Shown piece by piece: positions 18,111 through 30,408 of a DNA stretch of 44,038 nt. Source of the DNA: an uncultured Clostridia bacterium (GTDB taxonomy: Bacteria; Bacillota; Clostridia; Oscillospirales; CAG-272); contig CANBDB010000001.1 in the NCBI GenBank assembly GCA_947367285.1, positions 1 to 44,038 of the forward strand, read 5' to 3'. A model generated the notes under the pieces. That model was given only the letters and a program-made list of their open reading frames with translations. It was not told where the DNA came from and did no database searches. The position numbers and the translations under genes were made by a program. Each line of letters opens with the position of its first letter. Position 1 is the stretch's first letter.

Positions 18111-21100
18111 TCACCCCTCGCCGACATACCAATCGTCGTAGGCAGAGTCAACGATCTTGATGGTGTTACTGTTTCTCACCGAGCTGATCATACCCGCCGG
18201 TGTCCACACGTCGGTTGCCATAACGGACACAATATAGTTACCGTTGGGATACCACAAGGGTGTGAAGTGGAGTCTTTCGTTCAGATCCGCAGTTGTATTT
18301 CTGACAAATACCCAAGCACCGCCGTATTTTTCAAGGCTTCGGAAGCTGTCGATTGTCTTGGCATACTTGAATTCGGGGAAAGCTGCTTCTACTCTCTGAA
18401 CCGAGGTATAGGCAGAGCTTGCGGGCATCGTGTATCCGCTGATACTCGTGATAGAGGGAGCATAGCTCAGATAGATGCCGTATCCCGATCTCATTTGCCA
18501 CTGACCGGACGTGTATTTTGCGGAGGGACTGTCTTCATCGGGTGTGATGGTGGGAGCAGTACTGCTGATCGCCACACCGTAATTCTTCTTCACGAAGCTG
18601 CCGTTGGAGTACGTCCAAAGGCTCCATGTTGCAGATCCCGCACTTGTGGAAGGTGCGGACGGAATGGAGAATCCGTTCGGTTTGGTTTCCTCGTACTGCG
18701 TGTCGGGTGTCTGCGAGGTGTTGACCTTCGCCACAGTCCTTGTCAGCGTTGCGGTGTTGTTTGAGGTGTTATACTCGTCAAATCCGTTTTCCGAGTTGAC
18801 TACAGCCTTGCAATACACCGTTTTTCCGGCAATGGTAGAAGGTACCGTCCACTTGAAATACACGAGGTTATTGTCGTATGAGGGAATGACCGCTTGCTTC
18901 CAAGTCTGAGTGGAAATCACGACCTTCGTGCTTCCGTTGTAATAATAGGCTTCAAAGGAAACCGTATTATTATGGCTCGGAATGATGTTATGACGGTTAT
19001 TGTTGTAGATACGGTAACTCGTCACCACAGTCATTCCGGCACGGTAGTCGCTGTTGGGTGTTATCGCTTGGATCGTCAAGTCGATCTTGGGCTTGACGGT
19101 AACCTGCACGGTTGAGGTTTCGTTGTTGTTGGGATTGATTTCCGAGGAATGGTTCGGCCAATTCACTCGCACCTTGATGTTGTTGACTCCAACGGTACCG
19201 CCCACATTGAGGTTCAGCGTGTGGTTCTTACCGCCGTACACAGCGTAGTCGACGTACTCGGTATAAATGACCTCGCCGTTATACAGAAGCTGTACGGGAA
19301 TGTCGTTGTAGGCATTATACCGATCCCACGAGTCGGTTCGGAAGGTCACCTTTACGGTTTCATTCTCGTAACAGGTCGTGGGTGTGATCTGCAAGCTTGA
19401 CACCGAGAATTCATAGTATTTGTTGACTGTCGCTGTGGTCGAGGTGCTGTTGTTATAGGCATTGTCCTCGCCGTATCGGTAAGACCAGTTGATTCGTGCT
19501 GTAATGGTCTGTGAACCAAGGGAACTCATCGGAATGGAATAGGTGTGGCTGTTTCTTCCGTAGGCGGAGAAGTCCACGTATTCGCTCTTAACAACGGTGT
19601 TACCCACGAGAAGTTCGACAAGGATATCGTTATAGGCAACGTCCATATTCCAGTTGTCTGAAATGAAGGATACCGTTACATAGTCGCCTTGATACACCGT
19701 GCTCGGTGTTACGCTGATGCTCGATACCGAGAAATCATAGGTGCTGTCAATGGTTTGGTTGGGTGTGATCGTCTCGGTTGCGGAGTTGTCATAGGGATCC
19801 GTTTCGTAGTCCTTATAGGCCCAGTTGATTCGAGCTTCAAGGGTTCGGGTATAGGTTCCCGAATAGTAGACGCTCAGCGTCTGATCGATGCCCTCATAAG
19901 CGTCGAAATACTTGGTTGCGGAGTAGATGCGTGATCCGTTGAGATACACCTCACAGAGAGCAGAACCGCTGATATCGGTCCAGTTCTTCCACCACAGATC
20001 CACCGTACCGTAGCTGTCTTGATCGGGTTGCTCGATGCCGAAGATATACACGCCATAGTCCTGGTCGTATTTCACGTCGGGAACCGTAGGCGTTACCGTT
20101 CTTGTTCTGAGGTTATCGTTGGGATCGGTTTCCTGATTTCGGTTGGCATAGTTGATCTTAGCGGTAAGAGTCTGTGTGCTTGTGCCGGGATAATACACGC
20201 TGAAGGTGCTCTGTACGGCAGAACCACCTGCGATGGTCTTATTGCCCGACCAAATCCTTGTAGATCCTCGGTACAGTTCACAGAGAACCGTTCCGCTTTC
20301 TGACTTATAGTTTCGCCAGTTGACGACAACGGTTCCGTAACCGTCTGCGGTAGGTGTAGACACCGTGCCGAAGTAGGTTCCGTAGTCAATCTCCTTGTAC
20401 TCGGGTTCCTGGACGGCTACAGGAAGCCATCTCATGCCCCAACCGCCGCCTTTGACAACGTCGTTATAGTCCCATTTCTTTGAGTCATCGGTGACGGCAT
20501 ACACGGGATATCCGAACCAAGACTCTTCAAGCTGCACAGAGGTCGGCATGTGTCTTTCGGGAAGAATGGCACAGTTCTGACCGCTTCCTCCGCTTTTGTT
20601 CCAGTCGTACCAGCCGTTCAGCTCACAGAGAGCGAACTCGGTTGCAGTGAACGCAAGCTTTGTTACCTTGTCCTTGAGGTTCAGAATAACCATAGGCTCA
20701 TATACGATTACCCACGGTACTCGGTTGCTCGTTCCATTGGGATCAAGGTAGGAGTAGTCCCAATTTGTCTGACTGCGTCCACCGATGGTAAAGCGGAGTG
20801 CTCTCAGCATACTTTCCTTGGTGGTTCCTTTATCCTCTGCGATGGCATTGAGGATGGTGGACACCGTGCCGGTTGAACCGAAGTATGCCTTAACGGTACC
20901 GATATCACCATCACATACGATAGGAACCTTGGGACAGTTCGCATCGGATATAATCTTTGGAGACGTATCCATCGTCATCGTTGCACCGGAGTAATAGTCG
21001 ACCTTGGTTCCGCTACCGAACTTGACAGAGGAGGATACGTTCCACCCTGTTTTCTTCATGACAACGGTACCGATTCTGTGAAAGTCGTTTTGCAAGTTTG

Positions 21101-21302
21101 AGGACTTGGAGGCTTGATCCGATTTACCAACGAACAACGTTACCTTCCACAGGTACTGATAGGTGTTGTACCATGCATAGCCCGTGGCAGCACCATGCGT
21201 GTCGCCCGAACCGCTTTGCGCGTTATCGTCGGCAAATGCAGTAATAGAAAAAGCTGACAGCAAGGTTGCCATCAGCAGAATAATGCTCAGTATTCTTTTC
21301 AA
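18111..21302 (-). CDS. Large secreted repeat protein (putative adhesin with CARDB/Ig-like tandem modules)
   Basis: 1063 aa. Signal peptide ...SITAFA|DDN, unknown ~280-aa N-domain, five ~100-aa repeats, unknown C-domain. No LPXTG and no C-terminal TM. Confidence 0.75.
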   Translation of the reverse strand: MKRILSIILLMATLLSAFSITAFADDNAQSGSGDTHGAATGYAWYNTYQYLWKVTLFVGKSDQASKSSNLQNDFHRIGTVVMKKTGWNVSSSVKFGSGTKVDYYSGATMTMDTSPKIISDANCPKVPIVCDGDIGTVKAYFGSTGTVSTILNAIAEDKGTTKESMLRALRFTIGGRSQTNWDYSYLDPNGTSNRVPWVIVYEPMVILNLKDKVTKLAFTATEFALCELNGWYDWNKSGGSGQNCAILPERHMPTSVQLEESWFGYPVYAVTDDSKKWDYNDVVKGGGWGMRWLPVAVQEPEYKEIDYGTYFGTVSTPTADGYGTVVVNWRNYKSESGTVLCELYRGSTRIWSGNKTIAGGSAVQSTFSVYYPGTSTQTLTAKINYANRNQETDPNDNLRTRTVTPTVPDVKYDQDYGVYIFGIEQPDQDSYGTVDLWWKNWTDISGSALCEVYLNGSRIYSATKYFDAYEGIDQTLSVYYSGTYTRTLEARINWAYKDYETDPYDNSATETITPNQTIDSTYDFSVSSISVTPSTVYQGDYVTVSFISDNWNMDVAYNDILVELLVGNTVVKSEYVDFSAYGRNSHTYSIPMSSLGSQTITARINWSYRYGEDNAYNNSTSTTATVNKYYEFSVSSLQITPTTCYENETVKVTFRTDSWDRYNAYNDIPVQLLYNGEVIYTEYVDYAVYGGKNHTLNLNVGGTVGVNNIKVRVNWPNHSSEINPNNNETSTVQVTVKPKIDLTIQAITPNSDYRAGMTVVTSYRIYNNNRHNIIPSHNNTVSFEAYYYNGSTKVVISTQTWKQAVIPSYDNNLVYFKWTVPSTIAGKTVYCKAVVNSENGFDEYNTSNNTATLTRTVAKVNTSQTPDTQYEETKPNGFSIPSAPSTSAGSATWSLWTYSNGSFVKKNYGVAISSTAPTITPDEDSPSAKYTSGQWQMRSGYGIYLSYAPSITSISGYTMPASSAYTSVQRVEAAFPEFKYAKTIDSFRSLEKYGGAWVFVRNTTADLNERLHFTPLWYPNGNYIVSVMATDVWTPAGMISSVRNSNTIKIVDSAYDDWYVGEG
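18815..20390 (-). repeat. Five tandem ~100-aa beta-rich modules inside the 1063-aa gene (approximate bounds)
   Basis: Repeated patterns YGT(V/Y)...W(R/K)N(Y/W)...LCE(L/V)Y...INYA/INWAY...ETDP.DN and Y(D/E)FSVSS(I/L)...AYNDI(L/P)V(E/Q)LL...INW. Confidence 0.6.
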
Positions 21303-21328
21303 GCTTTTTCTCCTTTCTGAAAGTAATT

Positions 21329-21352
21329 GACGGCACCGCTTTGGGTGCCGTC
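21329..21352 (-). other. Stem-loop between the acidic-protein gene and the adhesin gene
   Basis: GACGGCACC-GCTTTG-GGTGCCGTC, 9-bp GC-rich stem with only a weak T-tract. Confidence 0.45.
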
Positions 21353-21368
21353 CGTGATTGTCTTATTC

Positions 21369-29543: not shown

Positions 29544-29774
29544 TTAGCCCTTGTAGTTGAAGAGTTCCTGGATCTTCTGCGTTACGGTGGGCATAATGGT
29601 GGTGTTGAAGAGCGCATAGAGACCTGCAAGCAGGAGTGCGCCGATAACGACGGCGATGAGGATCTTGACGCCGGAATCGACGTAGCCTTCAGCCTTTACA
29701 TTCTCGATTGCGGTCTTGGCACGGACTGCCATTTCGGTTGCCTTGGACTTAATGCTGGAGAAAAACTTTTTCAT
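29544..29774 (-). CDS. Flp-like prepilin, copy 2
   Basis: 76 aa, differs from copy 3 at 4 positions. Confidence 0.75.
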   Translation of the reverse strand: MKKFFSSIKSKATEMAVRAKTAIENVKAEGYVDSGVKILIAVVIGALLLAGLYALFNTTIMPTVTQKIQELFNYKG

Positions 29775-29816
29775 AAATAATTACCTCGTTCTTTCTTATT
29801 TTTGATGGATTACGGA

Positions 29817-30047
29817 TTAGCCCTTGAAGTTGAAGAGATCTTTGATCTTCTGAGTCACGGTGGGCATGATGGTGGTGTTGAAGAGCGCATAGAGACCGGC
29901 AAGCAGGAGAGCACCGATAACAACGGCGATCAGAATCTTGACACCGGAATCGACGTAACCTTCGGCACGGACGTTGTCGATGGCACACTTAGCGCGAATT
30001 GCGAGAGAGTTGCACTTTTCGGAGATCTTGTTAAAAAACTTTTTCAT
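29817..30047 (-). CDS. Flp-like prepilin, copy 1
   Basis: 76 aa. The leader diverges (MKKFFNKISEKCNSLAIRAKCAIDNVRAEG); the mature part is nearly identical. Confidence 0.75.
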   Translation of the reverse strand: MKKFFNKISEKCNSLAIRAKCAIDNVRAEGYVDSGVKILIAVVIGALLLAGLYALFNTTIMPTVTQKIKDLFNFKG

Positions 30048-30105
30048 TTGAATTACCTCATACTTTCTTGATTTTTTGATTTGAATTTTGTTGTTTGGGT
30101 TCGGC

Positions 30106-30408
30106 TCAGTTCATGCCGAAAGGGAGAGCGCTGTTGTCGATGCTCTGCGTGTGAGCGTCGTAGGCGGCAGATACAGCCTTGAAAAGCTGTGCGCGTGTGT
30201 CGCTGTCGAGGGGATGCACAATGTCGCTGTGCTTCACATCACCCTGTGTGTTCTTCCACTTATCGGAAGGCATGGACACGAAGTCGCCGTTCTGACCTTT
30301 GATGAGCTTTACTCCGTGGATGGCGAAAGCATCATCGAGCGTAACGTCACAGATTGCCTTGACGTTGCCTTTGTCGAAGGTTTTTACAACCTTTGCGTCG
30401 ATTTTCAT
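30106..30408 (-). CDS. spoVG: SpoVG-family protein
   Basis: 100 aa. MKIDAKVVKTFDKGNVKAICDVTLDDAFAIHGVKLIKGQNGDFVSMPS. RBS AAAGGAGGAA. Confidence 0.8.
   Translation of the reverse strand: MKIDAKVVKTFDKGNVKAICDVTLDDAFAIHGVKLIKGQNGDFVSMPSDKWKNTQGDVKHSDIVHPLDSDTRAQLFKAVSAAYDAHTQSIDNSALPFGMN

Follow-up and report, generated by a model that had tools for sequence, protein, structure and literature searches.

A divergent Tad-like filament module in the transfer region of a Clostridia mobile element, and its possible role in mating-pair formation

The textbook answer of Gram-positive bacteria to the problem of finding and holding a recipient cell is the wall-anchored adhesin. A 2025 review of type IV secretion system (T4SS) nomenclature names only the type IV pili (T4P) of IncI plasmids and of PAPI-1 as T4P partners of conjugation (PMC12857230). 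The thin pilus of IncI plasmids brings donor and recipient into contact, above all in liquid and in the gut, and which recipients are chosen depends on its adhesins (PMC12857230, PMC9045228). For the linear plasmids of Cutibacterium acnes, the authors who described them asked whether the tad and conjugation genes were linked and left the point open (PMC5696575). Here we compare with these systems a block of Tad-like genes found beside a minimal T4SS in a 44,038-nt stretch of DNA from an uncultured Clostridia bacterium (Oscillospirales, CAG-272; assembly GCA_947367285.1, contig CANBDB010000001.1, positions 1 to 44,038 of the forward strand), this whole stretch being referred to as the window.

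An initial reading of the window (the first-pass annotation) had presented the block as a complete Tad/Flp-type pilus operon spliced in-line into the T4SS operon of an integrative and conjugative element (ICE), and had set it against a background of Firmicutes T4SSs that lack pili. This background is being revised by a 2025 preprint proposing VirB2-like pili for Gram-positive conjugation, and the window itself has a candidate for such a pilus subunit, the DUF3852 protein. The view that a Tad-type filament is not a described paradigm for Gram-positive conjugation has stood, in that a literature search that left subscription-only papers outside found no description of a Tad-like module in Firmicutes conjugation loci; the same search, with the same limit, yielded no paper on DUF6133, DUF4320, DUF3852 or DUF7768.

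Conservation of the module and the slot that it occupies

The block occupies positions 18111-30408 of the minus strand as a compact run of genes encoding, in the order of transcription, a SpoVG-family protein, three 76-aa prepilin-like proteins, a lipoprotein, an A24 prepilin peptidase, a CpaB/RcpC-like protein, a P-loop ATPase, a CpaF-like ATPase, a TadB/TadC-like pair of paralogues, two proteins resembling pseudopilins, an acidic membrane protein and, last, a secreted protein of 1063 aa. The largest gap, between the third pilin gene and the lipoprotein gene, measures 73 nt, four start/stop overlaps of 1-4 nt are found inside the block, and the gene that follows starts at a GTG at 18106, 4 nt past the stop of the 1063-aa open reading frame (ORF). 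Gene order, strand and spacing had been read correctly at the outset, including the maximum gap, the presence of overlaps and the 4-nt 3' junction.

To survey relatives, one genome per species was scanned with the CpaF-like ATPase, which has more than 2300 relatives at E<=1e-20. The scan returned 80 loci, most of them titled Clostridia (Acutalibacteraceae, Oscillospiraceae, Lachnospiraceae and "Eubacteriales"). As far as the contigs reach, every locus kept the order SpoVG, pilins, A24 peptidase, CpaB, P-loop protein, ATPase, TadB, TadC, DUF4320 and second pseudopilin. In the clade whose ATPases are at least 79% identical to that of the window, every locus with enough downstream sequence continued through a large protein into DUF7768 and DUF3852, and then into TrbL_5, VirB3 and VirB4 where the sequence extends. 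The three TrbL_5 relatives that were looked up, including the window's own (the others being P0210, 77% identical, and P0148, 81%), all had the block upstream; in PLSDB, TrbL_5 gave only two distant matches, which are too few for a survey of the presence or absence of the Tad block. Contigs carrying the module were also seen in a few non-Clostridia bins, L001 (Bacteroidales; a 2-kb contig with a 100% identical ATPase), L020 (Alphaproteobacteria) and L048 (Bacteroidaceae), for which mis-binning of a mobile element is the likeliest explanation.

At 28-43% identity the module adjoins at least four other T4SS arrangements in plasmids and contigs of Clostridia. In Terrisporobacter pTPHSE1 it stands beside VirD4(CD1115), pLS20_p028, a topoisomerase, DUF5592, VirB4, a C40 peptidase and MobP2, and in C. 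difficile pCd5_2 beside the first parts of that set (VirD4(CD1115), pLS20_p028, DUF5592). An Oscillospiraceae plasmid has it next to Toprim, DUF3852, TrbL, VirB3, VirB4 and M23 genes, a 247-kb Subdoligranulum plasmid next to VirB4 and a type IV coupling protein (T4CP), with the Tad genes reordered, and a distant metagenomic contig next to a DUF3991 primase, T4SS_pilin and a T4CP. Further hallmarks of conjugative elements, ArdC in one case and a topoisomerase with HTH_36 in another, adjoin it in other samples. Blocks of the form CpaB-AAA-ATPase-T2SSF-...-DUF4320 also occur on Bacillus cereus pG9842_209 (L170) and, in two copies, on Thermoanaerobacterium pMU3262 (L171). PLSDB assigns both plasmids the mating-pair-formation type MPF_T, and pAW63-type plasmids have been described with a "VirB11" in the tra region; both the typing and that "VirB11" may reflect the ATPases of such Tad-like blocks. 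A one-off insertion into a single ICE, as the word "spliced" had implied, is thus rejected, since the block has been conserved as a module across entire families of ICEs and plasmids in Clostridia. The synteny survey that had been proposed as a check places it usually next to or inside conjugation modules, and not, as would have spoken against the proposal, usually away from T4SS genes.

In a clade with ~70% identical ATPases, the module has ParA/ParB on one side; on the other come HTH, DUF3849, a 317-aa protein and the first part of a large polyvalent protein. A metagenome scan seeded with the 317-aa protein recovered almost only Tad-less relatives, and the T4SS of the ~70% clade itself was not reached. 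These Tad-less sister elements share the same backbone (ParB 55-59%, the 317-aa protein 46-50% and the polyvalent protein 40-48% identical), and every Tad gene is absent from them. The slot was compared in the loci with both flank markers, as follows.

Tad-bearing loci (n = 27): ParB-to-DUF3849 slot of 11-15 kb; Tad module in 27/27; SpoVG present; thioester domain (TED) adhesin in 0/27
Tad-less loci (n = 45): ParB-to-DUF3849 slot of 5-8.6 kb; TED+SpaA-type adhesin, homologous to that of locus L118, in 45/45; SpoVG in 0/45

In L118 the slot holds a lipoprotein gene and a gene for a 1398-aa adhesin, in which a thioester domain and ten SpaA domains are followed by a C-terminal sortase-type signal made up of PKTG, a transmembrane (TM) helix and a K-rich stretch. 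A thioester adhesin of this kind is reported to be required for efficient conjugation of pLS20 (PMC8092201). The occupation of one slot, in a mutually exclusive manner, by either the Tad module or a thioester adhesin is the strongest argument that the module takes part in mating-pair formation. On the strength of these gene neighbourhoods we consider it moderately probable that the module acts in mating-pair formation, as a divergent Tad-like (type IVc-related) filament belonging to the transfer gene set of these Clostridia elements.

Several points weigh against this reading. The case for a mating function is one of synteny; the ~70% clade has no T4SS within 10 kb of the module; and one distant DUF4320 locus has neither a T4SS nor a mobile-element marker within the same distance. 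The pilin failed the Flp family test, and the likeness to T2SSF, TadZ and TadE is remote. A terminator just in front of spoVG might set the block off as a unit under its own control, and the status of the host element as an ICE is only inferred, since no integrase was seen. Mobile elements are also known to carry colonisation cargo, and the Tad pili of Bifidobacterium and other bacteria serve host colonisation.

The rival that survives best builds on this last point, and takes pilus and adhesin as cargo that benefits the host bacterium, for example by adhesion to mucus, epithelium, feed particles or biofilm, as in classical tad "colonisation islands", with no role in DNA transfer. Tad loci, as known colonisation factors, have spread horizontally as single loci (PMC6668835; Bifidobacterium Tad), and the link between tad and conjugation genes on the C. 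acnes plasmid was left open by its authors. The terminator is compatible with separate control, the module is optional in the ParB/DUF3849 backbone, and the distant locus without a nearby mobile-element marker would be accounted for as well. Against it, the module is found inside the transfer region rather than at its edge, co-directional with its neighbours and separated from them by gaps of 4-84 nt. Nor does cargo sit well with the conservation of the module in every examined member of the window's ICE family, with its recurrence beside several different T4SS arrangements, or with the finding that, where the module is absent, its slot holds an adhesin of the type used in conjugation. We regard the cargo explanation as unlikely.

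Parts of the putative filament machine and its secreted partner

The features of the block and of the gap in front of it, all on the minus strand, are given below in the order of transcription, with Pfam E-values unless otherwise stated.

30447-30482, minus strand: intrinsic-terminator-like hairpin with a 14-bp stem, an 8-nt loop and a U7 tail (dG -22 kcal/mol, z -2.9)
30106-30408, minus strand: SpoVG-family DNA/RNA-binding protein (SpoVG 7.3e-24), first gene of the module
29817-30047, 29544-29774 and 29271-29501, minus strand: three tandem 76-aa prepilin-like genes (DUF6133 2.1e-29)
28421-29197, minus strand: LppM-like lipoprotein with a C-terminal TM helix and an LTGC lipobox (LppM 1.2e-5, below the Pfam cut-off)
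27773-28405, minus strand: short TadV-type A24 prepilin peptidase of 210 aa (Peptidase_A24 4.9e-12; 46.7 bits, cut-off 26.5)
26897-27754, minus strand: CpaB/RcpC-like protein with an N-terminal TM helix, SAF and RcpC domains and an acidic C-terminal tail
26166-26897, minus strand: P-loop NTPase at the TadZ/CpaE position (weak P-loop/MinD/ParA matches)
24849-26162, minus strand: CpaF/TadA-like secretion ATPase of the T2SSE superfamily (T2SSE 1.3e-30)
23926-24852, minus strand: TadB-like platform protein (remote T2SSF, from paralogy and fold)
23044-23913, minus strand: TadC-like platform protein (remote T2SSF paralogue, from paralogy; weak T2SSF in the L083 and L171 homologues)
22608-23030, minus strand: DUF4320 pseudopilin-like protein with a KAEG↓YIDT motif (DUF4320 3.3e-35)
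22115-22597, minus strand: second pseudopilin-like protein, GGG↓YFTP followed by a hydrophobic helix
21369-22118, minus strand: acidic low-complexity protein with a single TM helix
18111-21302, minus strand: 1063-aa secreted repeat protein, a candidate pilus-associated adhesin, with a Sec signal and neither a sortase signal nor a TM anchor

The ATPase belongs to the TadA/CpaF type by its T2SSE match and by its best solved relatives in the PDB, which are structures of CpaF (8rkd/9e24, 1.9e-26), archaeal GspE, FlaI and VirB11 ranking behind. Against NCBIfam it matches VirB11, TIGR03819 and FlaI all at about 1e-36, in each case under the curated cut-off. The CpaB/RcpC assignment is carried by matches to RcpC (2e-9; 37.8 bits, cut-off 28.8) and SAF (1.6e-6; 29 bits, cut-off 21), that to TIGR03177 CpaB (2.7e-15) lying under its cut-off. 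At the TadZ position, where a ParA/TadZ-like protein had been announced, a P-loop protein is indeed found, its similarity to P-loop/MinD/ParA families being weak; its Walker A motif, GxPxSGKTT, is invariant, and a hidden Markov model of its family matches the "AAA ATPase" at the same position in the Tad-like loci of B. cereus and Thermoanaerobacterium.

The two platform proteins are paralogues of each other (hhalign 96%, E 2.5e-9). Neither has a T2SSF match in Pfam or NCBIfam, even at E<=10, and an attempt to establish T2SSF membership directly, by comparing their family profiles with PDB sequences, was discarded when it returned coiled-coil noise (spike, haemagglutinin). Homologues from B. 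cereus, Thermoanaerobacterium and the Oscillospiraceae plasmid give weak T2SSF matches spanning the domain, the best, from B. cereus, reaching 2.9e-5 (24.4 bits, the cut-off being 25.2). The TadB-like protein was modelled with AlphaFold2 from an alignment of 46 sequences (predicted local distance difference test, pLDDT, 72.6), and the model had as its top Foldseek matches the cytoplasmic domains of PilC, EpsF, OutF, TcpE and SpoIIIAB (template-modelling score 0.67-0.78 on the target, root-mean-square deviation ~2.6 A), at non-significant E-values of 0.6-3. The pair is thus probably, if not provably, a T2SSF-type platform with a GspF/PilC-like fold; of the earlier TadB and TadC labels, the paralogy, the modelled fold and the weak matches of homologues hold, the window proteins themselves showing no family match.

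The three pilin genes form a 273-nt tandem repeat of 2.7 copies, and the identical sequences upstream of pilins 2 and 3 indicate a recent duplication; related loci (L003-L080) have one to six tandem pilin genes each. Cleavage is predicted at AEG↓YVDSGVKILIAVVIG (the arrow marking the predicted site), which would leave a mature subunit of ~46 aa. In 53 distinct homologues the motif (K/R)AE[G/A]↓YVD[S/T]GVKILIAVVIGALLL, with Gly or Ala at -1, is extremely conserved. Size, G/A at -1 and a hydrophobic N-terminus are traits shared with Flp pilins, but the Flp signature G↓XXXXEY is not followed: there is a D at +3 and no E5-Y6, DUF6133 was the sole Pfam match, and NCBIfam gave none. "Flp-like prepilins" was accordingly apt as to size, the residue at -1 and the hydrophobic N-terminus, the family being DUF6133 and not Pfam Flp.

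The peptidase is of the TadV type, its catalytic D91 and D148 (GGAD) being unchanged in 64 of 64 homologues. DUF4320 is a large family (520 clusters at 50% identity, among 1.84 billion representatives), and the second pseudopilin is retained after it in 55 loci. Neither protein matches the TadE profile, though a pilin-type cleavage motif is present. Because this one kind of cleavage site is common to the DUF6133 proteins, DUF4320 and the second pseudopilin, all three look like substrates of one prepilin peptidase.

A Pfam search found neither an RcpA secretin nor a TadD pilotin in the block, which is not disqualifying, since their lack is expected in a monoderm host. Taken together, domain matches and gene order support the block as a full parts list of a type IV filament machine, one that belongs to the Tad branch but forms a divergent sub-type of its own. 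A canonical Flp/Tad locus it is not, because the pilins are DUF6133 proteins and the T2SSF, TadZ and TadE memberships fall short of curated thresholds. The complete Tad/Flp-type operon first proposed can therefore be retained for its A24 peptidase, CpaB/RcpC protein and CpaF-like ATPase and, with less certainty, for its platform pair and its pilin-like and pseudopilin-like proteins, its membership of the canonical families being partial.

Other genes of the block are accessory or variable. The lipoprotein was found in only 8 of the 80 related loci, and the position of the acidic protein is taken in relatives by Cu_amine_oxidN1, CWB2 or SH3_3 proteins. The 1063-aa protein ends in a conserved domain of ~340 aa (HFTPLWYPNG...WTPAGM...YDDWYVG; window 18111-19205) that corresponds to DUF8195, an assignment made from precomputed Pfam hits on the large proteins of relatives; its 1064-aa homologue in L168 has DUF8193/8194/8195 on record. 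The modules of L164-167, L184 and L185 are likewise paired with a DUF8195 protein, and the C-terminal domain also occurs in L059, L016 and L082. The Tad-linked large proteins have ordinary Sec signal peptides and, like that of the window, neither a sortase signal nor a TM anchor. Their N-terminal and middle parts vary, with Flg_new repeats, CarboxypepD_reg/SpaA-like domains and a weak CARDB match, and the L184 protein has TED+SpaA at its N-terminus. Domain composition suggests that the DUF8195 proteins are modular adhesins; a role for DUF8195 in place of wall anchoring, perhaps through attachment to the filament, is speculation. Among PDB sequences no match came up for the 1063-aa protein, searched over its whole length, and an AlphaFold2 model of its C-terminal 364 aa, made with no alignment, was unusable (pLDDT 41).

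SpoVG is likely to be a regulator of the module. Of the 80 related loci, many of them cut short on the upstream side, 56 were found to have its gene ahead of the pilin genes. The terminator-like hairpin lies in the 84-nt gap between YodL/DUF3846 and spoVG, 10 nt past the YodL stop and 38 nt before the spoVG start, and the stretch that separates it from spoVG is too short for a promoter. With the terminator in front and no room for a promoter behind it, regulated read-through (antitermination) may be what allows spoVG, the Tad genes and the T4SS genes to be expressed. The position of spoVG at the head of the module with a terminator in front of it suggests regulated expression together with the transfer genes. 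By a simple criterion, comparable hairpins stand upstream of spoVG in only ~15 of 55 relatives, for which reason no conservation of the terminator is claimed, and a scan for consensus promoters gave no excess (17 found against 18.9 in shuffled sequence). As for the in-line insertion of the block, its 3' junction with the T4SS genes is seamless (4 nt), while its 5' edge is interrupted by the terminator.

The adjoining T4SS and the host element

A single co-directional array of mobile-element genes on the minus strand fills 3.5-40.7 kb, almost the whole window. Transcription runs from leading-region genes through the block into a minimal Gram-positive T4SS, then through several small ORFs to a group comprising relaxase, primase, coupling protein and HTH_36 genes. 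The features flanking the block are, in the same order, the following.

Upstream of the block, minus strand: leading-region-type genes DUF4314, Dcm, LPD28, Dam, DUF3849 and YodL/DUF3846
17732-18106, minus strand: DUF7768 protein with a GTG start at 18106 (Pfam DUF7768 1.3e-36)
17410-17757, minus strand: DUF3852 protein with a signal peptide, two TM helices and a charged loop (Pfam DUF3852 1.4e-43)
16428-17345, minus strand: VirB6-like TrbL_5 protein (Pfam TrbL_5 4.2e-116)
16134-16412, minus strand: VirB3-like small membrane protein (Pfam TraL 0.005; position kept in relatives)
15559-16137 and 12987-14825, minus strand: VirB4 as two ORFs, a TraC-like N part of 192 aa and an ATPase of 612 aa (P-loop_TraG/AAA_10/DUF87)
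14835-15638, minus strand: Imm51-like gene between the VirB4 halves
7030-8490, minus strand: MobL relaxase (Pfam MobL 7.4e-24)
5673-7310, minus strand: DUF3991/Toprim primase, as longest ORF
3748-5694, minus strand: VirD4-type coupling protein (T4SS-DNA_transf 1.4e-46)
Same gene group, minus strand: HTH_36 protein

The window holds the VirB4, VirD4-type coupling protein, relaxase and VirB6-like protein expected of a Gram-positive T4SS. Two names given to the genes next to the block have changed: the one called DUF4406 is a DUF7768 gene (1e-36), and the one called Maff2 (VirB2-like) belongs to DUF3852, with the VirB2-like topology borne out. By the characteristics set out in the 2025 preprint on VirB2-like pili, the DUF3852 protein is a VirB2-like candidate. 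VirB4 is split in all relatives, the Imm51-like insert being found in the window, L168 and L173 and absent from L164-167.

No Pfam domain of a peptidoglycan hydrolase (VirB1-like) or of a VirB8/TcpC-like protein was found in 8493-17757, nor elsewhere among the ORFs that the scan covered, which were the large ones and the small one at 31894-32202. This has a bearing on a second rival, in which the Tad-like apparatus would be essential to translocation itself, for example as a wall-spanning or retractile pseudopilus that opens the peptidoglycan or as part of the conduit. A T4SS so minimal, with neither protein found by Pfam between DUF3852 and the relaxase, would leave room for such a hybrid machine, as would the constant presence of the module in the window's ICE family; chimeric T4P-VirB4/VirD4 systems provide precedents (PMC12857230), and the result would resemble the PAPI-1 pilus. 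The missing proteins could, on the other hand, be too divergent to detect or encoded outside the window, and plasmids with the same Tad module (L081, L083) encode C40 or M23 peptidases, that is, hydrolases of their own. Sister backbones without the module carry an adhesin in its place, and because of this replacement we argue for a role in adhesion rather than as a conduit. An obligatory hybrid machine thus appears quite unlikely.

The label ICE is a reasonable one for the host element, if unproven. Neither an integrase nor a tRNA gene was found in the window. Its right flank (41085-43057, plus strand) looks chromosomal, with a xanthine phosphoribosyltransferase gene (xpt) and a xanthine permease gene. 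A 128-kb metagenomic contig contains the element in an identical copy, and no element integrase was found there in the ~9 kb past HsdM; these hold only a type I restriction-modification (RM) system, the recombinase of an hsdS shufflon, a UmuC-like gene and an ANT-like gene. The HsdM gene of the window (533-2026, minus strand) is part of this type I RM system (L175:10001-18544), which has three hsdS genes with a tyrosine recombinase among them, in a phase-variable, shufflon-like layout, and is followed by the UmuC-like polymerase gene and the ANT-like nucleotidyltransferase gene. The type I RM/UmuC/ANT region is probably cargo of the element.

Two further observations concern the annotation of the window. 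Some longest-ORF starts overrun upstream genes, the Toprim ORF (5673-7310) overlapping MobL by 281 nt and the Dcm ORF (35614-36936, minus strand) overlapping DUF4314 by 124 nt; the real starts are probably internal, as relatives call primases of 443-448 aa. The leading region also encodes an AbrB/MazE-type DNA-binding protein (31894-32202, minus strand; MazE_antitoxin 9e-8), and an AbrB-family gene is found within the Tad block of the Oscillospiraceae plasmid (L083:9919-10224).

Proposed action and comparison with known systems

If the module does act in mating-pair formation, the short A24 peptidase would process the DUF6133 prepilins as well as both pseudopilin-like proteins, cutting behind AE[G/A] or GG, and the CpaF-like ATPase, the TadB/TadC-like pair, the P-loop protein at the TadZ position and the membrane-anchored CpaB/RcpC protein would polymerise a thin filament through the monoderm wall. 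The co-inherited DUF8195 protein, secreted and with no sortase signal, would supply the adhesion, exposed on the filament or together with it. The filament would capture recipients or stabilise mating pairs, and the adjacent minimal T4SS (DUF3852/VirB2-like, TrbL_5/VirB6, VirB3, VirB4, T4CP and MobL relaxase) would then transfer the element. The module may in this manner take on the function ascribed to sortase-signal thioester adhesins in the sister elements. Use of the filament for DNA uptake, or for T2SS-like (type II secretion system-like) secretion or display of the large DUF8195 protein, is very unlikely: a Tad-like pilus is needed for transformation in an actinobacterium (Micrococcus luteus), and the DUF8195 protein is always co-inherited and has no anchor, but that protein has an ordinary Sec signal peptide, the module comes without ComEC/ComEA-type uptake genes, and tandem arrays of one to six pilin genes fit the major structural subunit of a real filament.

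A more far-reaching version of the mating-pair reading would be that a large, hitherto overlooked class of Clostridia and other Bacillota elements uses a two-machine apparatus, in which a retractile Tad-like filament (DUF6133, DUF4320 and a DUF8195 adhesin at the tip or as partner) is required for efficient transfer, or for any transfer, reeling in recipients or breaching the thick wall on behalf of a minimal T4SS in which no hydrolase was detected. We regard it as doubtful. Were it true, monoderms would have their own equivalent of the IncI and PAPI-1 pili, one that helps to decide between which hosts genes flow in gut microbiomes.

A role in mating-pair formation alone would make an ATP-driven Tad-like pilus in the transfer regions of gut Clostridia a third solution beside anchored adhesins and VirB2-like pili. 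Such a pilus could be one reason why genes pass between Firmicutes in habitats that are liquid or viscous, and its surface components, the pilins and the DUF8195 adhesin, would be targets that may set the recipient range. Conjugation assisted by type IV pili is already known; what would be new here, as inferred from the loci compared, is the Tad type, its occurrence in monoderms and its wide distribution in gut Clostridia. For annotation, such loci should not be labelled "colonisation islands", nor their ATPase "VirB11" or a marker of MPF_T. The Tad-bearing and thioester-adhesin-bearing sister backbones offer a natural contrast for experiment.

Among described systems, the type IVb pilus (T4bP) of the IncI plasmids R64 and TP114 resembles the module in that a T2SS-like filament machine is encoded beside a T4SS on a conjugative element. 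It is a T4bP with a PilV shufflon, whereas the window, known from its genes alone, has a machine of the Tad/CpaF branch with 76-aa DUF6133 pilins and a separate, Sec-exported DUF8195 protein; the host is also a monoderm without a secretin, unlike the Gram-negative hosts of IncI plasmids. The PAPI-1 or ICE-encoded type IV pilus of Pseudomonas likewise has its own pilus genes linked to VirB4/VirD4 on an integrated element. There, transfer fails without the pilus, and the remaining T4SS components are not easily identified, whereas the window has a recognisable VirB2/3/4/6-like set and Tad-less sisters exist.

With the canonical Tad/Flp systems (Aggregatibacter Tad, Caulobacter Cpa, Bifidobacterium breve Tad) the module shares its organisation as a single locus, a TadV-type A24 peptidase, CpaB/RcpC, an ATPase at the TadZ position, CpaF/TadA, a probable TadB/TadC pair, small pilins, and pseudopilin-like proteins with a shared motif. 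It differs in the DUF6133 motif AE[G/A]↓YVD in place of Flp G↓XXXXEY, in platform, TadZ-like and pseudopilin proteins that score under curated thresholds, and in the addition of DUF8195 and SpoVG. The setting differs as well, being a conjugation region in the window and a chromosomal colonisation island in the canonical case. The NCBI family TIGR03819 ("TadA family conjugal transfer-associated ATPase") matches the window ATPase at 7e-36 with 124 bits against a cut-off of 373, so that the protein is not a member.

The nearest precedent is provided by the linear plasmids of C. acnes (PMC5696575), on which a Gram-positive tad locus neighbours VirB4/TcpC/FtsK-like genes. The host is an actinobacterium and the tad locus, of the canonical type, is described as a virulence or adhesion factor, with neither a module common to several elements nor a slot replacement shown. 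In proposed role, finally, the module comes closest to the thioester-domain adhesin of pLS20 and to PrgB of pCF10, both assigned to mating-pair formation, a TED/SpaA adhesin being what occupies the module's slot in the sister elements; these are single proteins with a sortase-type anchor signal, whereas the window would encode an ATP-driven filament machine and an adhesin without an anchor.

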